DNA of 64,000 nucleotides. It comes from an uncultured Nitrososphaerota archaeon (GTDB lineage: Archaea; Thermoproteota; Nitrososphaeria; Nitrososphaerales; Gagatemarchaeaceae). The position numbers were made by a program, and so were the translations under genes. Shown piece after piece: positions 3,342-56,412 of the stretch; position 1 is the first letter of the stretch; each line of letters opens with the position of its first letter. Below the pieces are notes generated by a model. That model worked only from the letters and a program-made list of their open reading frames with translations. It had not been told where the DNA came from and did no database searches. The stretch is taken from NCBI GenBank assembly GCA_963838925.1, contig CAWISW010000002.1:384001-448000 (forward strand), in the 5' to 3' direction.

Positions 3342-3541
3342 TAGATGGCTGCGTTCACCCTGATTTGGTTAATACAGCTTGCGACCCTCGGCGCCGCTAG
3401 AGCCTTCGGTGAAGACCAATCCCCTAGGTTTATCTATCGTCGCAGCGGTGGAACAGACTGAGACGGCGCAATCTCGGAGAGAAAGGCGAAGTGATGCACA
3501 TGAAGCTTACAGCGTCGATGCCCTCGGCAGAGTGACCTCGG

Positions 3542-3970
3542 ATGAGCAATCCAGACGACGAAATGAACCCGTATGAAACATTGGGACTTCCTCCAGATGC
3601 CACTTTGGAGCAGGTGAAATCAAGGTTCAGGCAAGTCAACGACGCATATCTCAAGATACTCCAGTCGTCAAAGACCGGCGTGAGGGCCGGTGCGCCCAGT
3701 CGACCTAGTCCAACAGAAGACAGCACTGTCCAACCCAAGCCACAGCCAGATGCAAGTCCAAAGCAGGGGGCCTCGCCTCCGCAACAGACTCACACGGAGC
3801 CGATAGCCAAGATCAAGGCAAGGCTCGCAAAAGGGGAAATAAAGAAAGCCCAATTTGAGAAGCTGGCAAGAGAGCGGTACAATTACCTCAAGAACAAGCC
3901 CTTCAGCGAGTTGACGGACTCTGAGTTTGAAGAGAGAACCAAGGGGTTTGAAGGATTGAAGTTTCTATGA
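3542..3970 (+). CDS. J-domain-like protein lacking the HPD motif
   Basis: NPYETLGLPPDATLEQVKSR directly followed by FRQVNDAY; Pro/Gln linker; SHOCT-like RLAKGEIKKAQFEK. Confidence 0.6.
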   Translation: MSNPDDEMNPYETLGLPPDATLEQVKSRFRQVNDAYLKILQSSKTGVRAGAPSRPSPTEDSTVQPKPQPDASPKQGASPPQQTHTEPIAKIKARLAKGEIKKAQFEKLARERYNYLKNKPFSELTDSEFEERTKGFEGLKFL

Positions 3971-4028
3971 CCCAGTCGCACGACTAGGATAGGAGTCTAC
4001 CAAGTCGAGTCCTTCGCCTGAGACAGAC

Positions 4029-5957
4029 TCAGGCTGCCTTTCTGTCAACCCGCCTCCTGATTATCTTTCCACCACCCGCAGGGAGCATGCGCAGCACGTC
4101 ATCCACGCCGATGCTGACGCGCGCGTCGGCATACGGCGTCAACTCATGGAGAACTCGCTTTGCCGTGTCGGACGGCTTCTCCCTGCTCGGAACAAGGGTG
4201 ACGTGCCCCTTGGCCACCTTGATGATCGCCTCCTCGGGCCCTGAGATTATTCGTCCACCATCATCGATTCCCACTGCGACCTCCACCGTGTTCCTACTGA
4301 CGAAGTTCTTTTTCCCATTTATCGCGAACGAGCCGTGGGCGAGGAACTCCCCGCTCGGCCCCGCCGTGCCCACCTGCTCCGGGTTCACCCAGTAAGCGTC
4401 CGCCGCTCCCAGCCCGGTCTTCCACGCGCTGCTGAACGTCGCGGTCGCCTTCGCCACCTCCCTGACCTCCTCCTCCGTCTGCTCCTTCCCCCCCTTGAGC
4501 ACGAAGAACGGCGAGCCGAACAGGTCTGCGTGGTAGACCGTGTCGCCCTCCTGCAAGTGCCTCCGAATCAGGGTCGAGTTTGTCTGAGCGTCGCGCCCCC
4601 CGATGGCGAGCTTCCCCCCAGTCGTGAAGAACCACCTGAACTTCTCATACCACTCCTTCTTCGCCCTGGACAGGGGAATCGCCTTCACCCGGGCGGTCTC
4701 TTCCTTCCCGCTCTCCTTCTTGAGCTTGGGCTGGAGCTTCTTGATCGCGTCATCTATGTCCTGGATGTCGCGCTCAGTCCTCTTCGCCCGGTCGAAGATG
4801 GCCGAAGAGATGGACGCCTGCCCCTTCTCCGCTGATTTGTCGAGCGAGGATTGCAGGTCGCCGGGCAGGACCTTCGCGGCCTTCGCAATCTCCACGGCCT
4901 GCTCCGTGTCCGGAGCGGCCCTCACCAGCGGCGCCAGCTTCCTAAGCTCGGCGGAGAGCTTCGCGAGCCCGGTCTTCTTCTGCTCCAGGTCGGCGATGGT
5001 GGCCTGGAGCTCAAGGGCCCGTCGTTTGTGCGCCCCGCCTTTGGACTCCTCCTCTTCCGCGCGCGAGGCGCCCTCCTCCTCCGCCGTAAGCAGCCCTGAG
5101 AAGAGCAGCTTGTCGAGCAGCGGGCTCAGCGTGGGCGAGGCCTCGACGACCTGCCACCCCTTCGGATAGATGACCATGACCTCGACCGTCCCCTCGCCGG
5201 CACCCACCAGGCAAGGCCAAGGGTGGTTCTCGATGCCGTCCAGGATCTCCTTGACCGTCGCCATGATGTCGCCCACCTCCTTGTCGGGGATGTCCGTCGG
5301 GTCTTCCTGGACGTGGGAGAGGCGGGCCAGTATCTCGTCGACGTACCTCCTGGGGATGGATAGCCCCCTCCCGAGGGCTCGGCCGAGCGTGTTCTCCTTC
5401 GCCAGGGCCTTGGTCAGGTCCTCCCGCGTGACCGTGTCGAGCGAAGCCCGTGTCTGGGCGGGCGGGACGTAGGGAAGGCCCTTCGAGATCCTCCTCGACT
5501 CGCTCCGGACTTCGCGGAGGGCGAGGGTTATCTTGCCGTCAGGGCCGGTCAGCACGAGGTTGCCGGGAGGCATCAGCTCGAGGACGAGCTTGAAGCGGTC
5601 GTCCCCCTTCCCCTCGAACCCCAGCATGAGCACCCTGTCCAGGTCGAACTGCGTGACCGACTCGAGCTTGGCCCTGAGCAGGTGAGACCGCAGCGCCGTC
5701 GTGAACTCCGTCGTCTCCACACGGGCGGGCTTCTCGGTTATCCACGCGCCGAGCTTCGGGGAGAGAACAAGGGACACTTCGACAGACTCGCCGCCCTCGG
5801 CCCCTCCTGACTTTCTCATCCTGAGAAGCTGGCTCTCTCCAATCGAATAGATGTTCGAGACGTAGGTCCCCGCGAGCGCGGCGGAGATCTCCTTGGAGAG
5901 GACCCTGAACTCGAGCCCTGAAAGCGAACCCTTCGACTTGTCCGAGACCGACGACAT
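4029..5957 (-). CDS. rqcH: NFACT / Rqc2 (RqcH) ribosome quality-control protein
   Basis: Q-x-x-LDR, LELMPPGN, WYEKFRWF, GGRDAQTN, YHADLFGSPF, SSAWK, GEFLAHGSF motifs. Confidence 0.9.
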   Translation of the reverse strand: MSSVSDKSKGSLSGLEFRVLSKEISAALAGTYVSNIYSIGESQLLRMRKSGGAEGGESVEVSLVLSPKLGAWITEKPARVETTEFTTALRSHLLRAKLESVTQFDLDRVLMLGFEGKGDDRFKLVLELMPPGNLVLTGPDGKITLALREVRSESRRISKGLPYVPPAQTRASLDTVTREDLTKALAKENTLGRALGRGLSIPRRYVDEILARLSHVQEDPTDIPDKEVGDIMATVKEILDGIENHPWPCLVGAGEGTVEVMVIYPKGWQVVEASPTLSPLLDKLLFSGLLTAEEEGASRAEEEESKGGAHKRRALELQATIADLEQKKTGLAKLSAELRKLAPLVRAAPDTEQAVEIAKAAKVLPGDLQSSLDKSAEKGQASISSAIFDRAKRTERDIQDIDDAIKKLQPKLKKESGKEETARVKAIPLSRAKKEWYEKFRWFFTTGGKLAIGGRDAQTNSTLIRRHLQEGDTVYHADLFGSPFFVLKGGKEQTEEEVREVAKATATFSSAWKTGLGAADAYWVNPEQVGTAGPSGEFLAHGSFAINGKKNFVSRNTVEVAVGIDDGGRIISGPEEAIIKVAKGHVTLVPSREKPSDTAKRVLHELTPYADARVSIGVDDVLRMLPAGGGKIIRRRVDRKAA

Positions 5958-25295: not shown

Positions 25296-26282
25296 TCAGG
25301 CCGTGACGATTATCGTCGCGTTACCGGCTGACGTGTGAAGGGTGTCCATGTAGGTGTAGGTTCCTGGCGTGGTGAGTGTGATGCTCCAGATGCTGTAGGA
25401 GTTGATTGCGGGGGACGTCGTGCTAATTACCGAAGTGAACATTAAGGTCTTTGCCCCGCTGTCGTACACTCCGCACCAAGTGTGCGGAGGGTCAGCGTTG
25501 TAGAAGTACACGGTCGAGCCCGACTTCACGGTCAGACTGGTGGGGCTGAACTCGAAGCTCTGCAGGTACACGAGGTTCTGGACGACGCGGACCGGAAGGG
25601 GCACCGACGCCGAGAACGTTCCAGAGGTGGCCGCGACCGAGACCGTGAAGTTGCCGGGAGTCGCGGAGGCGCTCGCGAACACAGTGACCGCCTCTGCTGC
25701 AGGGAAGCCCGCCGAAAGCTTCACCGAGCTCGGGGAGATCTTCACAGTGAGGCCGTTGGACGCCGTGGCGTTGAATGTGACCGTTTCGCTCCCCGTCGCA
25801 CTTGAGGACGGGTTGAGCGTGAGCGAGATGTAGCTTGCATTGTTGCCTGGCGAGACGACCACAGAGGGCGCGTTGGCGACCATGGAGAACACGAAGGCTG
25901 GCGCGGTCGCCGTCGAGGAGGCTGACGACGTGCTGCTCGAGGTGCTGGTCGAACTACTGCTCGAGCTGCTGCTCGAGGACGTCGTGGTCGTGGTCGACGA
26001 GGTCGTAGAAGTGCTGCTTGTCGTGCTAGACGTCGAGGAAGTCGCTGAGGTTGTGCTTGGACTAGTGCTCGTCGTCGTGCTAGTGGTCGTAGTGGAGCTC
26101 GAGCTGGGCGTGGTGGTGCTCGATGTCGACGTCGTCGTCTGGGTGGTCGACGGGCTCGTCGAGCTCGTGCTGGAGCTGGACGACAGAGCCAGGTAGGCTC
26201 CCGCCCCAACCACGATCACTATCACGACTACCGCAATTGCAATGACAGAAGTGCTGACGCCCCGTCTGGCCCTAAAATTCAT
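25296..26282 (-). CDS. Surface protein: class III-like signal peptide, Ser/Thr stalk, Ig-like + degenerate cupredoxin domain
   Basis: MNFRARRG|VS + hydrophobic run; FSPTSLTVKSGSTVYFYN; C-terminal half aligns with 16087..17127; TATA-like TTTAAG about 25 nt upstream of ATG 26282. Confidence 0.75.
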   Translation of the reverse strand: MNFRARRGVSTSVIAIAVVVIVIVVGAGAYLALSSSSSTSSTSPSTTQTTTSTSSTTTPSSSSTTTTSTTTSTSPSTTSATSSTSSTTSSTSTTSSTTTTTSSSSSSSSSSTSTSSSTSSASSTATAPAFVFSMVANAPSVVVSPGNNASYISLTLNPSSSATGSETVTFNATASNGLTVKISPSSVKLSAGFPAAEAVTVFASASATPGNFTVSVAATSGTFSASVPLPVRVVQNLVYLQSFEFSPTSLTVKSGSTVYFYNADPPHTWCGVYDSGAKTLMFTSVISTTSPAINSYSIWSITLTTPGTYTYMDTLHTSAGNATIIVTA

Positions 26283-26370
26283 CAAAAACATTCCATTTTC
26301 CTCCATCTTAAACGTTCTTCACTAAGGATTCTGTTAACTGATTTGCACGGTAAGGTTCGGAATTTCTTCA

Positions 26371-27323
26371 ATGACTATTCTGACTATAAGGCCTTCAATC
26401 TCAGTCACCCAATCGATAAATATGAAGGTCACCAAACGATGCCTGTTGGTCGCGCCTTTCAGCAGGAGGGCTCAATGGTGGCCCCTGATTGTAATGGGGC
26501 TCTTTTCTCTGATACTCTATTGGGGTCAGTTTCGGACGTTTCTGGGTCTCAACGCGCCGACGCTGAGCGAATTGGCCAACCTTGCGAATTTGCTTATCGT
26601 AGGGTTGATTTTTGTGGAGGCTTGGCCTTTTTTAGGCATCCACGGCTCCATCTCCGTAAGAGACAACTAGAGTATCATCGTCATCCGATTATCTACAAGC
26701 TTCCATTCATGACTCAGGAAGCTTATGATAACCCCGTTCTAGAGATATTCGCGGAAGTTCTCAATTTCAGCGGGTTTCTGCCAATAGTGCGAGCCACCGA
26801 CTGTCATGCACAAGTCATGTTCTTGGGGACGCAGAAGAACAAAGTCATAACCGCCCTTGACGACCGAATATGGGACAACGGGAAATCTTCGTTAACAATG
26901 CACACTGGCTTGCACCCAAGGTCAGTGAGGCTTTTCGCTTTGGACACCATGAGCCACATCATTGTCGAGAAGCGAGACGATGAAGATGGCGAGATTACTC
27001 CGGCGATCTTGCCAAACGGGGAATATCGGATGATTATTGTGCTTGATGCAGAGGACACTATGTCTACTGAGCAAGAGCTGGGAACCTTCAATTTTCCCGA
27101 CTCGTTCCTTGCTGAGGCTCAAGCTGAGACTTCATCTTACGATGTGTGGAAAGGAAGAGTGAGTGACACTGGCTATGCCATCTTCATAGAGAGAACTAGG
27201 GAAGGAAAGAACATAGCAAACGTGGTTGGTAAAGTTCCGGACAAGCGGTTAGCCGAACTGAAGTCAAAGGAATTGAAGGGTTTCGAGGTTAGGACATTGT
27301 GGCCCGCGCCTCCGTCATCGTAA
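26371..27323 (+). CDS. Passenger hypothetical membrane protein split across two frames (-1 shift at about 26628-26634)
   Basis: Frame of 26371 gives two TM helices ending WPF; the -1 frame continues FRHPRLHLRK... to 27323; T TTT TTA at the junction; start uncertain. Confidence 0.5.
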
Positions 27324-27370
27324 TATCCATATGGATATAGACTTAAGTAGTGGCATATCCATAGGGATAT
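27323..27370 (+). promoter_or_regulatory. Transposase promoter with two 16-bp palindromic operators
   Basis: ATATCCATATGGATAT (27323-27338) and ATATCCATAGGGATAT (27355-27370) flank TATA-like CTTAAGTA (27342-27349). Confidence 0.65.
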
Positions 27371-28277
27371 GCGTCGAATCATGCCTTGCAAATACTGCCT
27401 CTCGCAATGCGTCAAGCCTAACGGCTCGATGAAGGGAAAGAAGACGCTAAAGTGCATGGATTGCGGTAAGAGATTCACGGAGAGCGAAAGCCTTCCGAAA
27501 ATGAGGGTGAACAAGCACGCCATAGTCACGGCCCTCTCGATGTATTTCGAAGGCCTCTCTACGCGCAAGGTCTCTCGCCAGCTAGAGTCGATATTCGGAG
27601 AGAAGGTTTCGCAGGTCACGATTTGGAAATGGGTGAGGAAGTATTCGGTTCTAGTCAGCGCCTACACGAAGACGCTCTCGCCCCAAATCGGCGGAAGGTG
27701 GCACCACGACGAGACCGTGATACGATGCGAGGCTCAGAACCAATGGTTCTGGGAGATGCTAGACGAAGACACGCGCTTTATAGTCGCGTCGCACCTTTCA
27801 GAGACTAGGACGCTCAAGGACACAATCACCCAATTCAGGAAGGGGCTTGAGACGGCCAAACACAAGCCGACCGTCCTGTATGTCGATGGCTCGAACCAAT
27901 ACGACCAAGCCTTCAACACGGTCTTCTATTCGAGATACAAGGTAGCAAGGCCTGAACTAGTGAAGAACATCGGCATACGCTCCCGCGAGACAAACAACAT
28001 CATAGAGCGACTGCATGAGACCGTGAAGGAGCGCACCCGACCGATGCGCGGGTTCAAGAACCAAGACTCGGCCCGAGCGATCTTGGAGGGATATGTGGTG
28101 AATTACAATTTCGCAAGGCCTCACCTGTCCTTGAAGGGGAAGACTCCCGCACAACAGGCGGGAATCGAGGTGAAGGGATGGAAGCAATTGGTAGAAAACG
28201 CCATAAAGAAGGAGGCCTTGAACCCACAAAGTCAGGAGGGAGAGCGAATCACAATCGCTCCTTTGCAGGTGGTATGA
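27369..28277 (+). CDS. IS6-family DDE transposase with N-terminal Zn finger
   Basis: CKYC...CMDC; YFEGLSTRKV HTH; WHHDET, VDGS, NNIIERLH catalytic D-D-E; RPMRGFKN; YNFARPH. Confidence 0.92.
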   Translation: MRRIMPCKYCLSQCVKPNGSMKGKKTLKCMDCGKRFTESESLPKMRVNKHAIVTALSMYFEGLSTRKVSRQLESIFGEKVSQVTIWKWVRKYSVLVSAYTKTLSPQIGGRWHHDETVIRCEAQNQWFWEMLDEDTRFIVASHLSETRTLKDTITQFRKGLETAKHKPTVLYVDGSNQYDQAFNTVFYSRYKVARPELVKNIGIRSRETNNIIERLHETVKERTRPMRGFKNQDSARAILEGYVVNYNFARPHLSLKGKTPAQQAGIEVKGWKQLVENAIKKEALNPQSQEGERITIAPLQVV

Positions 28278-28456
28278 GCGACATGAGAAAGGCGCTGGTT
28301 GCACTACCGGAGGAAGTGTGGGCCATTATCGACCGAGACCTAGGCGACACTATGGGCCACGGCTACTCGGACACGATAAGGAGCATCGTTTTAGCATGGC
28401 TCTCGGAGAACGGATACCTAGTGAAAGGAGGAAAAGGCCACGGCAAAGAAAAGTAA
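28274..28456 (+). CDS. Ribbon-helix-helix (CopG-like) protein
   Basis: ATGA overlap with the transposase stop; MRKALVALPEEVWAIID...YSDTIRSIVLAWL. Confidence 0.7.
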   Translation: MSDMRKALVALPEEVWAIIDRDLGDTMGHGYSDTIRSIVLAWLSENGYLVKGGKGHGKEK

Positions 28457-28577
28457 GGACGAGGAAATCGACATACTCGACGATATGCTGACCTCCCTAG
28501 TTGACCTCTTGGAAGAGAAGGGCGTTATTACCCAAGAGGAATGGGAACAGCGCATCAAGAAGAAACTCAAAACATAG
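28440..28577 (+). CDS. Small helical protein with apparent ACG start
   Basis: AGGAGG at 28426-28431, 8 nt before ACG; (M)AKKSKDEEIDILDDMLTSLVDLLEEKGVITQEEWEQRIKKKLKT. Confidence 0.6.
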   Translation, partial: TAKKSKDEEIDILDDMLTSLVDLLEEKGVITQEEWEQRIKKKLKT

Positions 28578-28616
28578 ATTCATATAAGAAGCGCCTTGGA
28601 GAATCAACCGACTAGA

Positions 28617-28727
28617 ATGTCCGGCTCCTTCGACAGCGTCGTTGAGCTGTTCGCCGCAGCGATAGCAGCGATTATTGGCCTCTATGTAATCTACATCTTG
28701 GTCAAGACACTTTTCTTCGGCGGATAG
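28617..28727 (+). CDS. 36-aa single-TM peptide (passenger)
   Basis: MSGSFDSVVELFAAAIAAIIGLYVIYILVKTLFFGG; TATA-like CATATAA upstream. Confidence 0.5.
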   Translation: MSGSFDSVVELFAAAIAAIIGLYVIYILVKTLFFGG

Positions 28728-28728
28728 C

Positions 28729-28869
28729 ATGAACCCATCCCTTGTCCTAGCAGGTGGAATCATGATGCTGATTGGCGTGTTCGAATTCTCGAACAATCAG
28801 CCATTGGAATTCCTGACTGTTTTGTTAGGAGGGTTTACCATGTATCAAGGGTCGAGAAGTGGTAGATAA
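28729..28869 (+). CDS. 46-aa hydrophobic peptide (passenger)
   Basis: MNPSLVLAGGIMMLIGVFEFSNNQPLEFLTVLLGGFTMYQGSRSGR; starts 1 nt after the previous stop. Confidence 0.45.
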   Translation: MNPSLVLAGGIMMLIGVFEFSNNQPLEFLTVLLGGFTMYQGSRSGR

Positions 28870-29099
28870 CGAAGGATGAGAAAACTGGAAGGCCAACCCC
28901 TTCTAAGTATGACCGCCTTTTCGGGATGTCATTTTTTCTCGTCGCGGGCTATCTGATTTACTACTTGGTCTCTCAGCAATCGAATCTGAGTGAAGCATCA
29001 GAGGGAGTTATAGGCGCGATAACTGTGGTCTGCCTTGTACTCGCCGGAATAGTGTTCACAGGTAGAGATTTTCCCGATATCAAGGTCTTATCGGCATAG
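28866..29099 (+). CDS. Small 2-TM protein (passenger); ATA start or internal ATG 28926
   Basis: ..YDRLFGMSFFLVAGYLIYYLVS...GVIGAITVVCLVLAGIVFTG..; ends 11 nt before the right IR. Confidence 0.45.
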   Translation: MTKDEKTGRPTPSKYDRLFGMSFFLVAGYLIYYLVSQQSNLSEASEGVIGAITVVCLVLAGIVFTGRDFPDIKVLSA

Positions 29100-29241
29100 A
29101 TTTTAGCCGTGTGCAAATCAGTTAACAGAATCTTCACTAAGAGACGACAATCTGCGATTTTGAGGGGAAAATCGGGTGCTCAGGGAGCCGCGGGGAGTCC
29201 AGCGGTTTAATATGAGCAGTAGGGCCCTCGAACCCCTGGAA

Positions 29242-37611: not shown

Positions 37612-37863
37612 TTGGGTGCCCCTTCGCGGGAAGACACTCCGACCACAAGGCGCAACTTTAGCAGAGGCTCCGTTGCCGCGCTGTCATTCGTCGTGCTGAT
37701 GGAGTTCGGCTTTGGCTTCACTTTCAGGTACCTCGTCCCGAACCTCGCCGTCGCGACGCTCGACGAGCTGTATTTCCTCACCTTTGCAATCGCTACGGCT
37801 GGGACCTTGCTAATCTACCGATATCTTCCAGATTCGAAGAAGCCCGCGTTCGACCTCTCGTAG
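37612..37863 (+). CDS. Small 2-TM hypothetical protein
   Basis: Two hydrophobic segments; fills the intergenic gap. Confidence 0.5.
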   Translation: MGAPSREDTPTTRRNFSRGSVAALSFVVLMEFGFGFTFRYLVPNLAVATLDELYFLTFAIATAGTLLIYRYLPDSKKPAFDLS

Positions 37864-37928
37864 CTTGACGCGGTCTTCCGGAAGAAAGGCTTAACACCCT
37901 CCCTTGGCGGGAGTCGCCAGAACGCGAC

Positions 37929-38312
37929 TTGGTAAAGGCAGTAGAGAACCTGAGGAAGAAGAAGCTCACCGGCGGGAAGAGGCGCCCGTTCCGTGGACGC
38001 AAGGCGTGCGAGGCAGACGACTACGCTTTCGAGACGGCGGTGGGCGAGCCTGTCAGCTCTCCCAAGCGCACGAGGGGAGGTAGCTGGAACTTCGGCCTGC
38101 GCTACGCTAACAAGGCCAACGTCTTCGACCCTTCCACAAGCAAGACCGTCAAGACCGACATCCTCAGGGTGACGGCGAACCCGGCCAACAGGGAATACGA
38201 GAGGAGAGGCGTCATCACGCGGGGGGCCACGATCGAGACCAAGCTCGGCAAGGCGAGGGTCACCTCGAAGCCCAGCGACGACGGCGTCGTCAACGGCGTC
38301 CTCATCAAGTAA
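37929..38312 (+). CDS. rps8e: 30S ribosomal protein eS8
   Basis: KKLTGGK, RTRGG, NPANREYERRGVITRGATIET.LG.ARVTS.P..DGVVNGVL. Confidence 0.96.
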   Translation: MVKAVENLRKKKLTGGKRRPFRGRKACEADDYAFETAVGEPVSSPKRTRGGSWNFGLRYANKANVFDPSTSKTVKTDILRVTANPANREYERRGVITRGATIETKLGKARVTSKPSDDGVVNGVLIK

Positions 38313-38520
38313 GAAGGGGTTCCGCTAACTCTTCGGCTCAAGCCGTTGTCGAGTCAACTTGCTGGCATCGACTCGGAGGATTAGGGTAGTCGTCCCGTTC
38401 CACGTCACCGCTTCACTTGCCAGCCCTTTTTCCTTCTCAATCGGACTGCAGGAGGTAGTAGCTTGTTGCGAGCGACATTCACCCTGCGTCTCCGACCGGG
38501 AGAGAAGGGAACGGTCGAAC
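38300..38520 (-). ncRNA. Putative TnpB omega/reRNA overlapping the tnpB 3' end (boundaries approximate)
   Basis: Inference from the TnpB family rule; the ORF has a long non-globular tail after RuvC-III running into the element end. Confidence 0.45.
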
Positions 38521-39654
38521 CTCGACCGCCCCCTTGCGGACAGGTTCATGGCTGCGTGCACGTCCCTGTCTGTCCACCTGCTACACGCCTGACACCACAG
38601 CATCCTCGCATGCGCGACATCGTCCCTTGCGGGACTGCGGAGCTTCTCCCCACACGTCGAGCACCTCGACGAGGAACCAGAGGTGTCAGACCTCGTGAGC
38701 TGGATTGTGGTCACGCCCCTCCACGCGGCCTTGTATTCGAGCATCTTCTTGGCCTTCCAGTGGGGCCACGAGTTGAGCCTGAACCTATACTCCGCTCCCT
38801 TGCGGTTCCCCCTGTGATACAACTTACTGATGCCCGTCAGGTCCTCGATGGCGAGAGCGGCCCCGTCCTTCGCGGCGACGTCGACGACGTAGTTCGTGGC
38901 CGCGTGGATGAGCTGGTCGCCCCTGTGATTCGCCCTCTCCCAGTACTTGCGGGCGAGCCTCCTTCGCATCCTGACGTCGTTCCTCTTGAACGAGCCGACT
39001 ATCTCCCTTGTAGTCTGCCTGACCCTGACCAGCTTTGACATCCCAACTACCGTGACCTTCTCTCTGTCCCCGAACGCTATGTTCTTCTCGTTCCTGTCCA
39101 CGCCGTAGACCCTCCTGATCTGGGCAGGCTCGATGTCCTCGCTGTAGCAGAGTGAGAGCGAATCGCGCGTTAGGGTAAGGCTCCTCACCTCCCTGTCGGC
39201 GAGCTTCTTCAGCGTGTATGGTTCGAGTTGGATGTCGAAATATTTGTCGCGCCTCAGTGGGATGAAGAGCCGCCCCTTCATCGTGATGAAGAACCCGGAG
39301 ATGATGCACACGACGGGTCTCAGAGGTCTTGCATGGCTGACCCTGACGCCTCGCCTCTCGCCCTTTTCACGGCTTCGGACGACGGCACAGGCCCGCGTCA
39401 TCGATGCGAGCTTGTAACACGAAGGCAGTTTGATGTCCTTGAGCGTGCGGTAGAACCCCTTCATCCCTCTGCGGCTCTCGATCTTGTTTTCTTCGGCGTA
39501 CTGGATGGCGTTGTATGTGAGGGTCAAACACTCGGAGAGCAGGTCGCCGAGCTGCAGGCTGGAATAAGATTGAGTGACGGACTTTGTGGCTCGCAACCAT
39601 AAGCTACACTGGAATCGTATAAATGCGCACATGCGCCGAAGAGTTAACAGAGCC
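38318..39654 (-). mobile_element. Non-autonomous tnpB-only element with IS6-like terminal inverted repeats (1337 bp)
   Basis: IRs GGTTCCGCTAACTCTTCGGC (38318-38337) and GGCTCTGTTAACTCTTCGGC (reverse complement of 39635-39654), 17/20 identical; direct repeat TAAGAAGG at 38310-38317 and 39655-39662. Confidence 0.9.
38325..39596 (-). CDS. tnpB: TnpB RNA-guided endonuclease
   Basis: RuvC-I YGVDRN, RuvC-II AIEDL, Zn finger CSTC...CQAC, RuvC-III DRDVHAAMNL; TTG start 39596 with TTTATA about 22 nt upstream. Confidence 0.93.
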   Translation of the reverse strand: MRATKSVTQSYSSLQLGDLLSECLTLTYNAIQYAEENKIESRRGMKGFYRTLKDIKLPSCYKLASMTRACAVVRSREKGERRGVRVSHARPLRPVVCIISGFFITMKGRLFIPLRRDKYFDIQLEPYTLKKLADREVRSLTLTRDSLSLCYSEDIEPAQIRRVYGVDRNEKNIAFGDREKVTVVGMSKLVRVRQTTREIVGSFKRNDVRMRRRLARKYWERANHRGDQLIHAATNYVVDVAAKDGAALAIEDLTGISKLYHRGNRKGAEYRFRLNSWPHWKAKKMLEYKAAWRGVTTIQLTRSDTSGSSSRCSTCGEKLRSPARDDVAHARMLWCQACSRWTDRDVHAAMNLSARGRSRFDRSLLSRSETQGECRSQQATTSCSPIEKEKGLASEAVTWNGTTTLILRVDASKLTRQRLEPKS

Positions 39655-39724
39655 TAAGAAGGAAACTACTATAACACTCGCGACACGCGGCGGTCGCAGT
39701 CGAGCACGGGTTGAGCGCCTCTAG

Positions 39725-40024
39725 TTGAAGGAATACGAGCGTTTCGTCGTCTGGCTCGACTATATCGACTCAGAAAGGAAGCGGAGCGAGGGGCGCAGGG
39801 TCCCTCTGAACTCGTGCGTGCGAGCGCCGAACCTGGAGGAGATGGTCCAGGCGTGCAGGAAGCTCAACCTCGACGCCCAGCCCGAAAAGGCATTCTACCC
39901 CCGGGCCTCGCGCCGACAGTCAGGATACGTCTCGATAAAGAAACAGGGGCAAAAACAGCAGGTTATCATGGCAATTGCCCGAGAATTGTCAAGAATCAGG
40001 GGTTCGCAGCCAAAGAAAGTTTAA
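39725..40024 (+). CDS. srp19: Signal recognition particle protein SRP19
   Basis: VVWLDYIDS..KRSEGRRVP, P.LEEM..A, K.YPR, GYV. Confidence 0.93.
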   Translation: MKEYERFVVWLDYIDSERKRSEGRRVPLNSCVRAPNLEEMVQACRKLNLDAQPEKAFYPRASRRQSGYVSIKKQGQKQQVIMAIARELSRIRGSQPKKV

Positions 40025-40054
40025 AGGCAACCTTTGGGCTTCTAAGGAAGCCAT

Positions 40055-40279
40055 ATGCAGGAAGTTGGCGAGGTCCTCCATCAGGCGAAGAGCGGAAGGC
40101 TGATCATACGTTTGTCAGGCAAAGTCTACGCTGGCCAGGTGCTCCTGGACTCGAAGGGGAGGAACGCCGCGAAGATCATAGAGCTCATCGGCCCCGTCTC
40201 GAGGCCTTACGCATCTGCGGCTCCAGCGTCCGACCGCGCGGCCACTGGGAAGGAAGGCCGGAAGCTCTTCGTGGGGTGA
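40055..40279 (+). CDS. gar1: H/ACA RNP protein Gar1
   Basis: VGEVLH, KIIELIGPVSRPYA; conserved rps8e-srp19-gar1-tfb context. Confidence 0.85.
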   Translation: MQEVGEVLHQAKSGRLIIRLSGKVYAGQVLLDSKGRNAAKIIELIGPVSRPYASAAPASDRAATGKEGRKLFVG

Positions 40280-53137: not shown

Positions 53138-54490
53138 ATGCGGTCTGAGGAGGAACCGGATGGCAGCGACATGCCAGGACTCTCGGGATACCGCGGCCCC
53201 TCCGCGAAGCTACTGGAAGGTGCTGGCGCCAACATAGGGGACGTCCTGGAGGTCAGCACGGGGGGCGAGAGAGTCAGGGGGACGCTCGTCCCGAGGTACG
53301 AGCACGACGACGAGAAGCACATCGTCATCAAGCTGAAGAACGGTTACAACGTCGGCATCTCCGTCGAGAAGATCTCCAAGGTCGAGCGGGTGGCGAAGGG
53401 CGAGGCACCGAAGTTCGTCGCCCCCGCGAAGCTCGCGAACAAGGGCCTACCAGTGGTCTCAATCCTGGGGACGGGCGGGACGATTGCTAGCCGCGTGGAC
53501 TACCGGACCGGAGCGGTCGCACCCGCGACGACGGCCGGAGAGCTCTACTCCCTCTTTCCCGAGCTATCTGAGATAGCCAACATCGCTCCCGAGATCGTCC
53601 TGAGCGTGTACAGCGAGAACCTCGAACCGGGCCACTGGGAGACGATAGCCAAGAAAGCCTCCGAGGTCGTCTCGAAGGGCGTCTCAGGGATAATCCTCAC
53701 GATGGGGACTGACACGATGGGCTACACGGCAGCCGCCCTGAGCTTCGCGCTAAAGGGCATCCCCGTCCCGCTCTTCATCGTGGGGTCGCAGCGCTCCTCC
53801 GACAGGCCTTCCTCCGACGCTTTCCTCAACCTGATCGGCGCGGCGACGATGGCGGTCCAGGCGGACTTCTCGGGGGTCTTCGTGGTCATGCACGCCGACT
53901 CTAGCGACGAAAGGCTCGCCGTCCACATGGGGACGCGCGTGAGGAAGAACCACACAAGCGCGAGGGACGCGTTCGAGTCGATGGGAGTCGAGCCTGTCGG
54001 ATACTGGTCGCGCGACGGGACTCAGGTCACCGCGCGCGAGGCGCCCCCGCCCCGTGGAAAGACAGCCGGGTTCTCAGCGAAGCCGAAGTTCGACCCCCGA
54101 GCGGCCCTCGTGAAGTTCTTCCCGTCGATGTCTAGCGAGTACCTAGGAGCCCTGCTGGGCTCGGGGCTCCGCGGTCTGGTCTTCGAGGGGACGGGACTCG
54201 GGCACATAAACAGCAAGAACCTCGAGGTGGTGGAGAAGTTTATCGCAGGCGGAGGGGTCGTCTGCATGACGTCTCAGTGCCTGTGGGGGAGGGTGGACAT
54301 GAACGTCTACGACACGGGGAGGGACCTTCTCAAGGCCGGCGTGGTCCCCCTCGAGGACATGCTCCCTGAGACGGCCATCGCGAAGCTCATGTGGGCGCTG
54401 GGCAACTTCAAGACCGCCGAGGAGGTCAAGGCCGTCATGCAGGAGAACCTCACCGGCGAGACGACAGGCAGGTCCACGCAGAGGAGGTAG
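53138..54490 (+). CDS. gatD: Glu-tRNA(Gln) amidotransferase subunit D
   Basis: KLKNGYNVG, TGGTIASRVDYRTG, GTDTM, GSQRSSDRPSSD, GTGLGH. Confidence 0.96.
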   Translation: MRSEEEPDGSDMPGLSGYRGPSAKLLEGAGANIGDVLEVSTGGERVRGTLVPRYEHDDEKHIVIKLKNGYNVGISVEKISKVERVAKGEAPKFVAPAKLANKGLPVVSILGTGGTIASRVDYRTGAVAPATTAGELYSLFPELSEIANIAPEIVLSVYSENLEPGHWETIAKKASEVVSKGVSGIILTMGTDTMGYTAAALSFALKGIPVPLFIVGSQRSSDRPSSDAFLNLIGAATMAVQADFSGVFVVMHADSSDERLAVHMGTRVRKNHTSARDAFESMGVEPVGYWSRDGTQVTAREAPPPRGKTAGFSAKPKFDPRAALVKFFPSMSSEYLGALLGSGLRGLVFEGTGLGHINSKNLEVVEKFIAGGGVVCMTSQCLWGRVDMNVYDTGRDLLKAGVVPLEDMLPETAIAKLMWALGNFKTAEEVKAVMQENLTGETTGRSTQRR

Positions 54491-54495
54491 GCGCC

Positions 54496-56412
54496 CTGGA
54501 GCGACGAGCCCCGGCCACGACCCTGCCCTTCGACCCCGAGTCCAGCCGGCTCAGGGTGGGCCTTGAGATCCACCAGCAGCTGGCCACCGACACCAAGCTC
54601 TTCTGCCCCTGCCCCATAGTGAAGTCTGAGGAGCTGCCGCTCTGCTTCGAGAGGAGGCTCCGCCCCACGCAGAGCGAGTTGGGTCAGATAGACCCGGCAG
54701 CGGTCTTCGAGTTCAACAAGGGGAGGGTCAACCTCTACAAGTGGAACCCCGAGTCCTCGTGCCTGGTCGAGGCGGACGAGGAGCCCCCACACCCTCCGAG
54801 CAGGGACGCCATCGAGACGGCCATCCTGGTCGGGGAGATGCTCGGCGCCAAGGCCGTGGACGAGGTCCACGTCATGCGCAAGATAGTGATAGACGGGTCG
54901 AACACCTCTGGCTTCCAGAGGACTGCCATCATCGCCCTGGGAGGGGCGCTGAGCGTCGACGGAACGAGCGTGGGGGTGCAGACGATTACCGTCGAGGAGG
55001 ACTCCTCGAGGGTGCTCAAGGAGGGGGCGCAGGCGAGGGAGTATGCGCTCGACAGGCTGGGGGTGCCCCTCGTCGAGATCGCCCTCGACCACGTCTTGGG
55101 GGTGCCCGAGTACGTCGAAGCCGTGGCCCTCTCTCTGGGAAGGTCTCTCCGCTCCACTGGAAGGGTCGCGAGGGGCCAGGGCACCATCAGGCAGGACCTG
55201 AACGTGTCGATACTCGACGGGCAGGCCGTGGAGGTGAAGGGAGTCCAGAAGCTCAGCCTCATCTCGAAGGTCGTCCGTTACGAGGCGACGCGACAGATGG
55301 GGCTGGTGAAGATCGCGAGGGAGATCAAGAGGAGGGGCCTGGCTGACGTCTCCTGCGCCATGAAGGACGCGACGGGGACCATGAAGGCCACCGCGTCCCC
55401 GGTTCTCAAGCGCATCATCCAGAAGGGAGGAGCGGTGACGTGCGTGGCCGCAAACGGGTTCGCAGGGCTCTTCGGGCTCGAACCGTTCCCCGGGATCCGC
55501 CTGGGGAAGGAGCTCGCGGAGATCGCAAGGACGAACGGCCTGGGCGGGGTGATCCACTCCGATGAGTTCGCGAAGCAGGGTGTGACAGAGGGCGAGGCTG
55601 CCGCCCTCCGTGCTCTCACAGGCTCCGGTCCCAGCGCGGGGCTCGTCCTTGTCGCCGGCGACTCGCCAGAGAGGGTGGGGACGGTCGCAGCGCTCGTCGT
55701 AGAGCGCATCAAGAAAGCCCACGTCGGTGTCCTCGGAGAGACGCGAGCAGCCACCTTCGAGGGCGAGACCAGGTACCAGAGGCCGCGCCCGGGCGCAGCG
55801 AGGATGTATCCCGAGACCGACATCCCGGAGATAGTCGTCTCAGAGGACTGGAAGCTCAGCCTCAGGAGGCACCTCCCCGTCCCGTGGAAGGAGAAGGTCG
55901 CTGGGTTCTCCAGGAAGCACTCTCTGAGCGAGGAGGCCGCCCTCCAGCTCTACGACTCGGACAACTCGAAGCTCTTCGAAGAGCTCGCGGCCAAGCTGAA
56001 GCTCGAGCCTTCGGTGATCGCCTCAATCCTCGTGGAGATACCGGTGCGCCTCTCGAGGGAGGGCATCGACGAGTCGAAGATCACCGAAGAGACGCTCTCC
56101 GACGTCCTGGGGGCGGTCGACGCGGAACGGTTCGCGAAGGAGGCTGCGATAGAGGTGCTCCGCTCGATCGGCAAGGGGGAGACGCGCGACGTCGACGAAG
56201 CGGTCTCGAAGCTGGGCCTGACCGGGATGAGCGACGCGGAGCTCGACAAGATAATCAGCGGCGTAATGCAGCGCAACAAGGCCCTCACGGAAGAGAAGGG
56301 GGAGCGGGCCTTCAGCGTCCTCATGGGCGAGGTGATGAAGCTCGCGAGAGGGAGAGTCGACGGACAGAAGGTGAGCAGGCTCTTGAAGAAGGCGATGGAG
56401 AAGGGCGCCTAG
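54496..56412 (+). CDS. gatE: Glu-tRNA(Gln) amidotransferase subunit E
   Basis: GLEIHQQL, CLVEADEEPP, MRKIVIDGSNTSGFQRT, GTIRQDLN, RMYPETDIP; probable CTG start after AGGAGGT. Confidence 0.95.
   Translation: MERRAPATTLPFDPESSRLRVGLEIHQQLATDTKLFCPCPIVKSEELPLCFERRLRPTQSELGQIDPAAVFEFNKGRVNLYKWNPESSCLVEADEEPPHPPSRDAIETAILVGEMLGAKAVDEVHVMRKIVIDGSNTSGFQRTAIIALGGALSVDGTSVGVQTITVEEDSSRVLKEGAQAREYALDRLGVPLVEIALDHVLGVPEYVEAVALSLGRSLRSTGRVARGQGTIRQDLNVSILDGQAVEVKGVQKLSLISKVVRYEATRQMGLVKIAREIKRRGLADVSCAMKDATGTMKATASPVLKRIIQKGGAVTCVAANGFAGLFGLEPFPGIRLGKELAEIARTNGLGGVIHSDEFAKQGVTEGEAAALRALTGSGPSAGLVLVAGDSPERVGTVAALVVERIKKAHVGVLGETRAATFEGETRYQRPRPGAARMYPETDIPEIVVSEDWKLSLRRHLPVPWKEKVAGFSRKHSLSEEAALQLYDSDNSKLFEELAAKLKLEPSVIASILVEIPVRLSREGIDESKITEETLSDVLGAVDAERFAKEAAIEVLRSIGKGETRDVDEAVSKLGLTGMSDAELDKIISGVMQRNKALTEEKGERAFSVLMGEVMKLARGRVDGQKVSRLLKKAMEKGA

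Follow-up and report, generated by a model that had tools for sequence, protein, structure and literature searches.

Cas12 descends from TnpB, a nuclease whose biological rationale is, to our knowledge, understood for IS605 and IS607 elements only. These elements excise scarlessly, and the nuclease is needed to restore the donor copy. Members of the IS1341 group of IS200/IS605 consist of a lone tnpB of ~1.3 kb with a 3′ omegaRNA that reads into the flank and lack a transposase of their own, an organization that the archaeal element described here shares. As the initial annotation had stated and the review passages on these families confirm, neither IS605 nor IS607 elements have inverted repeats at their termini (TIRs) or target-site duplications. 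IS605-type elements are described in those passages as having subterminal hairpins and inserting 3′ of an invariable TAM-like sequence of four or five nucleotides, whereas the element described here has 20-bp TIRs and 8-bp duplications of variable sequence.

TnpBs with inverted ends and a link to DDE transposases were already described in 2023. Passages of Altae-Tran et al. (2023, PNAS; PMC10691335) delineate six such TnpB branches, DDE-1 to DDE-6, in which TnpB lies within symmetrical inverted terminal repeats with its 3′ end near one transposon end and for which solo TnpBs with the same ends and mobilization in trans are suggested, all of which resembles the element described here; the claim that TnpB is unknown in a TIR/DDE context in prokaryotes is therefore outdated. 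The DDE-linked families are named ISL2, IS630 and IS1031 in a passage of a 2026 review (PMC13565253). IS6 (PF13610) is named in neither set of passages, although the supplementary tables of PMC10691335 may contain unlabelled overlap, and none of the papers retrieved in literature searches describes, by title and abstract, a TnpB within IS6-type ends, which those supplements may nevertheless list. A further difference is that the DDE-1 to DDE-6 branches were found through the adjacency of their genes to a DDE transposase, which is almost never seen in the TnpB loci described here.

Two other groups of elements are relevant. According to passages of a review of the IS6 family (PMC7986276), IS6/IS26 elements and their MITEs have a GG tip, a cTGTt motif, short inverted repeats and 8-bp direct repeats, as does the element described here, which differs from them in having no transposase gene, no ‘caaa’ motif and an RNA-guided nuclease as cargo. 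Fanzor elements (PMC3627910, PMC10530073) likewise carry TnpB-like RNA-guided nucleases in TIR- and duplication-bearing DDE transposons that are often non-autonomous; they occur in eukaryotes and their viruses, belong to other transposon superfamilies and encode longer proteins. We propose, with a probability of about 0.8, that the element described here belongs, as a non-autonomous member, to an archaeal lineage of IS6-family (DDE) transposons and carries nothing but an OMEGA module (tnpB plus omegaRNA); a transposase acting in trans would move it, and homing by TnpB might restore or spread it.

The tnpB element between rps8e and srp19

The element occupies positions 38318-39654 (1337 bp) of the window, i.e., the whole 64-kb stretch of DNA analyzed, which comes from a soil archaeon, and is flanked by rps8e and srp19. 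An intact tnpB is the sole gene between 20-bp terminal inverted repeats (IRs) that match at 17 of 20 positions, and the octamer TAAGAAGG is found on both sides; coordinates and shuffling agree with what the initial annotation had reported, and the observation of an IR-flanked and duplication-flanked tnpB element is confirmed. The right end (RE), on the tnpB 3′ side, has its IR at 38318-38337 (read inward, GGTTCCGCTAACTCTTCGGC), and the left end (LE), on the tnpB 5′ side, at 39635-39654 (read inward, GGCTCTGTTAACTCTTCGGC). The target-site duplications are at 38310-38317 on the RE side, where the TAA of the octamer is the stop codon of rps8e, and at 39655-39662 on the LE side. With up to three mismatches allowed, the 20-mer IR has exactly two matches in the 64-kb window, which are inverted, while 0.00 are expected from 100 shuffles. 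The octamer by itself is not rare in the window (three matches vs. 1.04 expected, with at least three in 9 of 100 shuffles); its frequency is unremarkable, and the telling point is that two copies of it directly abut the two IRs. The RE tip of this copy is slightly degenerate (GGTTCCGCT), the family form at both ends being GGYTCTGTT.

The tnpB ORF (38325-39632, minus strand) has 435 codons from the first ATG. Its product matches Pfam PF07282 with E = 2.5e-13 and 50.4 bits against a cut-off of 26.3. In an alignment of nine sequences with 26-65% identity to the window protein, the RuvC residues D179, E263 and D357 are invariant, as are C324, C327, C347 and C350 of the CxxC...CxxC zinc ribbon between RuvC-II and RuvC-III; in comparison with TnpB-like PDB chains, E263 and D357 also fall on the catalytic motifs. 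The true start is probably not the first ATG but the TTG at 39596 (codon 13), as the ORFs of relatives start at aligned residue 13. A TTTATA box inside the left end (39618-39623, minus strand), 27 nt upstream of this TTG and with similar boxes in the other copies in the genome, is probably the promoter of tnpB itself. ORF and Pfam searches of the element found no PF13610 (IS240/IS6-type DDE transposase) ORF; because no transposase is encoded, the element can only be a non-autonomous member of the IS6/IS26 family.

The genome contains three copies of the element, here called A (the window copy), B and C, whose full-length sequences are 78-82% identical to one another. All three have the IRs, and the 8-bp duplication is a different one in each (TAAGAAGG, GGCCGAAA and CCAGTGCA, respectively). 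The reading frame is open in copy A, while those of copies B and C contain in-frame TGA stops. None of 19 relatives examined at the rps8e-srp19 locus has the element there, and in three of them (L079, L081 and L083) the empty site consists of a single TAAGAAGG with the upstream sequence of srp19 after it. Because copies B and C have different 8-bp duplications and the empty site of relatives has a single TAAGAAGG, the duplication can be attributed to insertion. The initial annotation's expectation of further copies with IRs and duplications of their own, and of an element-free allele with one octamer and not two, is thus borne out on both counts. The remaining three TnpB paralogues of the genome (C1:60.5 kb, C1:189.6 kb and C2:545.8 kb) have no IR pair, with a single IS6-like end at one of them. 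A solo IS6-like end also lies at C3:382561, with no partner or gene nearby.

Related elements and IS6-family transposons in archaea

The related TnpB proteins have as little as 25-30% identity to the window protein. Candidate ends were available for 186 of their loci, at which IRs and duplications were scanned from the tip; local alignments not anchored at the tip often began a few bases off and mis-scored the duplications, while blastn-short self-comparison recovered only part of the IRs because many are imperfect. GGYTCTG-type IRs with an identity of at least 16/24 are present at 56 of the 186 loci, and in 29 of these 56 the duplication matches at 7 or 8 of its 8 positions, compared to 0/186 in a control with displaced flanks; the other 27 lack such a duplication, for which flank exchange accounts in some cases only. 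All 29 related insertions have T as the third base of the RE IR. Judging from the record titles, the hosts are Nitrososphaerota, including Ca. Gagatemarchaeum, Nitrososphaera and Nitrosopumilus, MAGs labelled Bathyarchaeia/Bathyarchaeota and one Asgard (Promethearchaeati) MAG. The IR-ended, duplication-making TnpB element is a widespread archaeal arrangement and not a one-off.

These data bear directly on whether the element is instead an ordinary IS200/IS605 or IS607-type element, moved by a Y1 or serine recombinase, whose IRs and octamers are a coincidence or a conserved target motif. Its tnpB-only content is that of the IS1341 group, and IS607 elements frequently end in GG according to a passage of PMC13565253. 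However, the sequence of the duplication differs at every insertion, empty sites have one copy and the displaced-flank control yields none, and the families in question have neither duplications nor TIRs in the passages that describe them. We give this reading virtually no chance. Membership in IS200/IS605 (IS1341 group) was rejected, as the group is characterized by subterminal hairpins and by the absence of TIRs and duplications, both of which are present here; membership in IS607 was rejected on the same absence of TIRs and duplications, the GG termini being the only likeness.

A young family is found in one complete Nitrosopumilus genome. This genome contains 40 element ends, compared to none for a control pattern; eight end pairs are spaced 1291 bp apart, and MITE-size end pairs are found as well. 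Five copies that were compared are 96.3-99.0% identical and have intact ORFs of 422 aa. Among nine copies, the duplication is perfect (8/8) in five and matches at 7/8 in one. The flanks of L165 and L281, two copies in inverted orientation, are swapped reciprocally, which is the outcome given for intramolecular replicative transposition in the IS6 review and would be expected of the replicative/cointegrate chemistry of IS6/IS26 (PMC7986276, passages on the mechanism), although homologous recombination between the two copies would yield the same pattern.

Transposase-encoding IS6-family transposons of the same lineages have IR tips that are up to 20/20 identical to those of TnpB elements, together with 8-bp duplications. 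Among the PF13610 transposons that have these tips together with 8-bp duplications are IS6_b and IS6_c of this genome, L038 (IR 14/14) and L052, as well as L057 in one scan, a second scan of the latter being mis-anchored. L272, with the duplication CGACAGCG, has a right IR that matches the window element at 18/20 and the TnpB loci L128, L177 and L260 at 20/20, and L277, a transposase-bearing element of Nitrosopumilus with the duplication CATTATTC, has an IR that matches the TnpB elements of the same genome at 18/20. The left IRs of L272 and of a further IS6 transposon, L274, lie outside their 3.4-kb loci and were located in longer sequence, while that of a third IS6 transposon, L273, was found neither in its 3.4-kb locus nor in longer sequence. 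The TnpB elements themselves have the 8-bp direct repeats and the short IRs, tipped by GG and containing cTGTt, that the initial annotation had named as IS6 hallmarks, in agreement with the IS6 review (PMC7986276, passages on the ends). Their IRs lack the ‘caaa’ that belongs to the IS6 consensus and have AAC in its place (...CTGTTAACTC), whereas IS6_b and IS6_c read ...CTGTTCAATC at this internal motif. The archaeal IS6-family relatives found in this work are transposons of 2-7 kb with cargo such as restriction-modification and HNH genes.

An IS6 transposase was found within only one of 206 TnpB loci, and as a separate element there. Within the genus, TnpB and the IS6 transposase (PF13610) show no association (both in 13, TnpB only in 4, transposase only in 4 and neither in 1), and G021, which is 69% complete, has 14 TnpB matches and no PF13610 match. 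This lack of co-occurrence would fit a reading in which a DDE transposase of another family, or some other enzyme, moves the elements, their likeness to IS6 having arisen by convergence or through the demands of the omegaRNA. Duplications of 8 bp are made by several IS families, and IR positions 7-13 are under the constraint of an RNA helix. Nevertheless, the tip GGTTCTGT lies outside that helix and equals the IS6 signature, the left-end IR has the same tip while forming no part of the omegaRNA, and PF13610 transposons with identical tips of 18-20 nt and 8-bp duplications are found alongside the TnpB elements within these lineages and even within one genome. We therefore regard movement by a non-IS6 enzyme as very improbable.

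A more specific question is which IS6 element might supply the transposase. The initial annotation pointed to a 2.8-kb IS6-family transposon 9 kb away in the window (26327-29133) that has passenger ORFs and 22-bp IRs beginning GATTCTGTTAACT and whose transposase ORF (27369-28277, plus strand) matches DDE_Tnp_IS240 with E = 1.2e-18. As it had noted, TCTGTTAACT is common to the IR of the TnpB element and both ends of this transposon at the same IR positions, with 12/14 identity over the tip; in the 64-kb window this sequence has four matches with at most one mismatch, compared to 1.2 expected, and four were reached in 2 of 100 shuffles. In G009, moreover, a related IS6 element with an 80% identical transposase adjoins a TnpB element at an identical target, where GCGACGAA is found three times. 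The tips of the neighboring transposon are, however, GA and not GG, and its duplication is 9 bp (TTCACTAAG) and not 8 bp, which corrects the initial annotation on both points. The three clear cases of the GA-tipped type (the window, L035 and L061) all have 9-bp duplications, a fourth, L049, being unclear (7/8), while those of TnpB elements are 8 bp. The IRs of the G009 relative match those of the window copy at only 14/22, so the shared 10-mer is not conserved, and the neighboring transposon, with a low GC content (49.5% vs. 61%) and a single copy, is probably recent while the TnpB copies are old. It is thus an unlikely source of the transposase. By their ends, transposons of the GG-tipped type with transposases of ~385-406 aa would be a better fit. 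The proposal that an IS6 system mobilizes the element in trans is supported by the match to the ends of transposase-bearing IS6 transposons, on which we base the inferred mobilization, except that the neighbor is probably not the partner.

No element contains a transposase, and nothing points to recent movement in this genome. Copy A may be a stranded relic of a family that was once mobilized by IS6 and is now immobile here, its tnpB being kept, if at all, for another role. The divergence of the three copies and the in-frame stops of two of them would fit such a history, as would the fact that the closest transposase-bearing IRs within this genome match at 12/14. Metagenome contigs from four soil DNA runs that cover the region likewise contain no joint across the element. 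On the other hand, the frame of copy A is open, none of its catalytic or zinc residues is lost, the IRs at its two ends and the whole of the covarying omegaRNA are retained, related families are plainly young elsewhere, and the assembly is 87% complete, such that a partner could be missing from it. We consider stranding a realistic prospect, though one with somewhat less than an even chance. In the same soil contigs, the empty site is found in one contig from a relative, and the terminal 80 nt of the element are piled to 50-63x, compared to ~4.5x in the flanks; we take no evidence on mobility from these contigs.

The predicted omegaRNA, its guide and the candidate TAM

A conserved structured RNA, the predicted omegaRNA scaffold, is found at 38318-38533 on the minus strand, where it overlaps the 3′ end of tnpB and reaches the tip of the element; the covarying structure thus spans ~215 nt up to the right-end tip. 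In an alignment of 22 sequences it contains 37 pairs, 13 of which have compensatory changes. The proportion of paired alignment cells is 95.8%, compared to 36-52% when the structure is slid along the alignment, and the covariation score is 0.288, compared to at most 0.109 when slid and with the observed value reached in 0 of 500 shuffles; because prediction and counting used one and the same alignment, these figures are flattered. The terminal helix (helix 7, columns 275-281 with 327-333) has 96.8% of its cells paired and double changes at two pairs; its 3′ strand (38324-38330, minus strand), which pairs with 38352-38358, lies inside the IS6-type IR. An Rfam scan of 37800-40200 matched no family. 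The sole match, to sR23, was below threshold (E = 0.79), lies within tnpB on the other strand and was taken as chance.

The guide of TnpB lies 3′ of the RE. Because the omegaRNA runs into the right-end IR, the guide would consist of the duplication and the adjoining flank, and the predicted template (38298-38317, minus strand), directly 3′ of the RE in the tnpB sense, comprises the duplication and the 3′ end of rps8e. By this anatomy, the RE-side TAAGAAGG, read in the tnpB sense, would provide the first 8 nt of the guide. Both the expression of the omegaRNA and the identity of its guide are inferred here from omegaRNA anatomy and established TnpB biology.

New in this work is a TTR motif that immediately precedes the left-end duplication on its 5′ side. 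In 25 of 29 insertions, T occupies position -2 of the LE flank, compared to 10 of 29 on the mirror side (Fisher p = 1.2e-4), positions -3/-2 are TT in 18 of 29 compared to 5 of 29, and position -1 is R in 24 of 29. The motif is present in seven of the nine copies of the young Nitrosopumilus family, while inspection by eye of eight transposase-bearing elements revealed TTR at only one of 14 readable flank sides (in IS6_b), the flanks of L057 being too short. At the corresponding position of the window copy (39663-39665, minus strand) the sequence in the tnpB sense is TTT, with T and not R at -1. We tentatively suggest, at slightly worse than even odds, that TTR acts as the TAM. The bias could also reflect an asymmetric preference of the transposase, or orientation-dependent survival beside AT-rich promoters, positions -12 to -7 being likewise A/T-rich. 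A host TATA box that drives tnpB was considered as a source of this A/T bias and set aside, since a TTTATA is already present within the element, 27 nt ahead of the start.

Based on these features, we propose the following model. An IS6-family transposase encoded elsewhere, the best candidates being those of the GG-tipped type, would bind the inverted ends that begin GGYTCTGTTAAC... and insert the element by an 8-bp staggered cut, as it would with its own transposons. The omegaRNA would be transcribed with tnpB or within its 3′ end, its last helix formed in part by the right-end IR, and would read outward into the duplication and the adjoining host flank as guide. In an empty allele, the sequence matching this guide would be preceded by the host bases that adjoin the left end, TTR in the majority of insertions; for this reason, TnpB is proposed to cut empty alleles (TAM TTR plus duplication plus right flank) and to spare the occupied one. 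Through repair from the occupied copy, the element would be restored or spread in the manner of IS605 and IS607 homing, but here for a duplication-making transposon. Homing by TnpB, like mobilization in trans, is a putative step of this model.

Implications for TnpB biology

IS6-type transposition is replicative, and the excision-repair rationale for TnpB is therefore not directly applicable. It is conceivable, though we would put it at a little under evens, that the OMEGA module is coherently built into replicative IS6-type transposons across archaea, with a last helix encoded by the IR, a guide that starts with the duplication and persisting insertions whose left-end duplication abuts a TTR TAM, and that TnpB acts against empty alleles, in homing or drive, on behalf of a transposon that never excises; a bolder possibility is that TAM binding by TnpB helps to place the IS6 transpososome. 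If this were true, TnpB would have left a footprint of its in vivo activity in the TTR enrichment of the 96-99%-identical Nitrosopumilus family, and TAM-aided placement of the transpososome would be a primitive form of nuclease-assisted target choice.

The cargo of archaeal IS6-family elements (restriction-modification, HNH and TnpB) appears common in comparison with the single passenger-carrying member, ISDsp3, that is given in the passages of the IS6 review (PMC7986276). Surveys by gene neighborhood would overlook transposase partners that act in trans. The lineage would be a prokaryotic counterpart of the Fanzor-in-TIR-transposon arrangements, and it may be a source of compact nucleases whose predicted TAM (TTR) is short and whose predicted omegaRNA is defined. 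What appears to be a large archaeal TnpB lineage resides in duplication-making IS6-type elements that are thought to be replicative, and the logic of repair after excision would need to be extended to allelic drive or retention.

The tnpB element of the window and its empty site

The tnpB-only element (1337 bp, 38318-39654) lies in the order rps8e ... TAAGAAGG / GGTTCCGCTAACTCTTCGGC ... tnpB ... GCCGAAGAGTTAACAGAGCC / TAAGAAGG ... srp19, with tnpB on the minus strand. In the 64-kb window, its 20-bp terminal inverted repeat (IR) is found at up to 3 mismatches at two sites only, which are the inverted ends of the element (0 expected, 100 shuffles); the 8-mer TAAGAAGG, not rare by itself, occurs three times, and two of these occurrences adjoin the IRs. 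Pfam searches assign TnpB to PF07282, the flanking genes to S8e and SRP19, and the transposase of the IS6 element at 26327-29133 to DDE_Tnp_IS240. The putative catalytic residues D179/E263/D357 and the four zinc-finger cysteines are invariant in nine relatives with 26-65% identity to the window protein, and solved TnpB/Cas12f chains match it across RuvC-II, the zinc ribbon and RuvC-III. The initial annotation's description of an intact tnpB with D-E-D and zinc finger, placed between inverted IRs and two copies of an 8-bp repeat, was therefore borne out.

Further copies with IRs and duplications, as well as an empty rps8e-srp19 allele, had been proposed as checks, and both were found. The genome (3 contigs, 1.84 Mb, 61% GC) contains two more full-length copies with 82% and 78% identity and the same IRs, each flanked by its own 8-bp direct repeat, GGCCGAAA and CCAGTGCA, that differs from that of the window copy; both have in-frame TGA stops, while the window copy is intact. 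Among 22 genus relatives, rps8e was located in 20, and in all 19 with a placeable rps8e 3' end the srp19 upstream region directly follows the rps8e stop codon. Three relatives have the empty site ...atcaag TAAGAAGG aaa(t/c)..., in which the 8-mer is present once. Given the distinct repeats at the other copies and the single 8-mer in the empty sites, the window duplication is the product of insertion at a staggered 8-bp cut. In the sister genome G020, a 73%-identical TnpB element (L029/L084, G020:C18:about 54434-55775; duplication CTTCGCAG) is found at the other end of rps8e from the window copy, ~55 bp upstream of the gene start.

IS6-type ends among archaeal TnpB elements

In the passages of PMC7986276 that define the IS6 family, 8-bp repeats, short GG-tipped IRs and cTGTt and caaa motifs are listed, which agrees with the earlier claim that IS6 ends have a GG tip and an 8-bp duplication. 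The TnpB elements have every listed end feature except the caaa motif. TnpB relatives (E <= 1e-20) were found in 27/61 related genomes, including the window's own, and in 17/22 of the genus; by record titles, the lineage belongs to Nitrososphaerota from soil and peat (Ca. Gagatemarchaeum and its kin), and farther relatives belong to Nitrososphaera, Nitrosopumilus, Bathyarchaeia, Methanomethylicota and one Promethearchaeati MAG. Genomes and metagenomes together gave 186 TnpB loci for a survey in which the best tip pair of the form G[GA]NNCNG was taken per locus. IR identity was at least 16/24 in 56 loci, and the flanking 8-mers agreed at 7/8 or 8/8 in 29 of them; in the control, for which the adjoining 8-mers on the outer side were compared, agreement stayed below 7/8 at every locus. 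Perfect duplications accompany even TnpBs with 28-31% identity to the window protein (L175 of an Asgard MAG, L168 and L169 of Nitrosopumilus). The IRs form several subtypes, to all of which a GGYTCTG start is common. The 27 of 56 IR-bearing loci without clear duplication count against the interpretation as elements mobilised by an IS6 system, as do the old and partly broken copies of the window genome.

A young family is present in one complete Nitrosopumilus chromosome (G061), where the IR 20-mer occurs 40 times (control pattern, 0) and eight IR pairs have the same spacing of 1291 bp. The five copies compared share 96.3-99.0% identity and intact 422-aa ORFs. Duplications are present in six of nine copies (8/8 in five, 7/8 in one); of the rest, one is unexplained and two are inverted copies with reciprocally swapped flanks (L165 at ~1.325 Mb, TAGAAACT/TTATGTTA; L281 at ~1.451 Mb, TTATGTTA/TAGAAACT; both on G061:C1), an exchange that implies a ~125-kb inversion, via either inter-copy recombination or intramolecular replicative transposition. 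The same IRs also form MITE-size pairs without ORF or clear duplications (L278:371-471, 101 bp; L279:325-465, 141 bp).

In two soil metagenome runs, summed contig depth is 50-63 over the terminal ~80 nt of the window element (38309-38395, IR and omegaRNA 3' part) vs ~4.5 in the flanks, and loose contig ends there show other IS6-type tips; there are therefore many related ends in the soil community.

Transposase-bearing relatives

IS6-type transposases (PF13610, DDE_Tnp_IS240) are encoded in 18/23 genus genomes, including the window's own, by elements of two types. Type (a), with a 302-aa transposase, GA-tipped IRs and 9-bp duplications (3/3 clear cases), includes the window IS6 transposon (26327-29133), L035 and L061. 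Type (b), with a 385-406-aa transposase, GGTTCTGT tips and 8-bp duplications, includes IS6_b and IS6_c of the window genome, L038, L052, L057 and L272, and its ends agree with those of the TnpB elements. For instance, the L038 IR is 14/14 identical to the left-end type of TnpB elements, and the right IR of L272 is 18/20 identical to the window tnpB element and 20/20 to the TnpB loci L128, L177 and L260. Within the Nitrosopumilus genome, the IRs of the TnpB elements are 18/20 identical to those of L277, a 6.85-kb transposon with a transposase remnant and the duplication CATTATTC. The neighbouring IS6 transposon named in the initial annotation is of type (a), and type (b) fits the TnpB elements better.

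Type (b)-related transposons are 2-7 kb long and carry cargo: an 804-aa N6_Mtase and HSDR_N fusion (L272:1037-5662, G007), an HNH-domain ORF (L274:1391-5475), and a methylase-like ORF, judged by its N-terminus (L277:586-7438, G061, transposase broken by other IS elements). All three are IS6-family transposons of 4-7 kb with 8-bp duplications, and their cargo looks defence-like. For the whole IS6 family, PMC7986276 counts only one member with a passenger. The GG-tip transposases (383-406 aa; G000 C2:509147-511129 and C3:179310-181693, L272:4435-5655) are extended at the N-terminus by roughly 100-200 aa, a region with a Cys-x-Cys motif and, in the single copy scanned, no Pfam match. The single-copy window IS6 transposon (2.8 kb, 49.5% GC vs 61% for the genome) has the appearance of a recently imported element with cargo, and contains several small ORFs besides one of 326 aa that lacks a Pfam match. 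Related elements of 1.9 kb in G020 and G009 have other passenger ORFs. The adjoining 336-aa ORF (25296-26306, minus strand), with an N-terminal half made up almost entirely of low-complexity Ser/Thr sequence, may encode a surface protein.

An IS6 transposase is near TnpB in just 1/206 loci (1.07 Mb), as a separate element at exactly the same target. At this locus (L061, G009:C3:414500-422500, about 2320-5575), an IS6 transposon whose transposase is 80% identical to the window's stands in tandem with a TnpB element; GCGACGAA occurs three times, and the order is TnpB element, GCGACGAA, IS6 element, CGCGACGAA. This means two insertions at one staggered cut or at cuts one base apart, and suggests either a strong hotspot or targeting of the insertion to the side of an IS6-type end. 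Co-occurrence of TnpB and transposase at the genus level was not found (13 genomes with both, 4 with TnpB alone, 4 with the transposase alone, 1 with neither), which also counts against the interpretation. The TnpB elements and transposase-bearing IS6 transposons look like non-autonomous and autonomous relatives with common ends, and we infer that the former are mobilised in trans. The observation of a tnpB element with IS6-type ends is confirmed, and its interpretation is supported.

Inverted terminal repeats have been described for six DDE-associated TnpB branches, with IS630 named in the text, and solo TnpBs with the same ends have been noted (Altae-Tran et al., 2023, PMC10691335). The families given in a 2026 review are ISL2, IS630 and IS1031 (PMC13565253); IS6 is unnamed in the main text passages of both. 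A literature search by title or abstract found no paper on TnpB in IS6-type ends.

The omegaRNA and the flank of the left end

A conserved fold is predicted for the final ~215 nt in 22 elements, with compensatory changes in 13 of its 37 pairs (e.g., columns 230/248, GC in 12 sequences vs CG in 10). Paired cells amount to 95.8% vs 36-52% with partners slid, and the covariation was matched by 0/500 shuffles; these values are biased in favour of the structure, which was predicted from the same alignment used for scoring. In the predicted last helix, window 38352-38358 pairs with 38324-38330, which are IR positions 7-13; this helix is followed by six nucleotides up to the tip, which read GGAACC in the window copy vs the family consensus AGAACC. 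Characterised TnpB systems take their guide from the sequence 3' of the right end. By analogy, the guide of the window element would be the duplication and the flank beyond the right end.

With tnpB used to orient 29 distinct insertions, the host sequence 5' of the left-end duplication tends to be TTR, with T at -3 in 20/29, T at -2 in 25/29 and R at -1 in 24/29. At the mirror of position -2 beyond the right end, T occurs in 10/29 (25/29 vs 10/29, Fisher p = 1.2e-4). In the young Nitrosopumilus family, TTG or TTA is at the left-end flank in 7/9 copies and at the mirror side in 0. Among eight transposase-bearing elements with duplications, TTR was seen at 1/14 readable flank sides (by eye, a small sample; L057 flanks too short). 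The bias may alternatively reflect an asymmetric transposase preference. Another alternative is survival near A/T-rich promoters; positions -12 to -7 are likewise A/T-rich. The TTR footprint has the appearance expected of a target-adjacent motif: in the empty allele the TTR bases would directly precede the guide-matching sequence, and in the occupied allele the IR tip would precede it. The footprint suggests TnpB homing against empty alleles.
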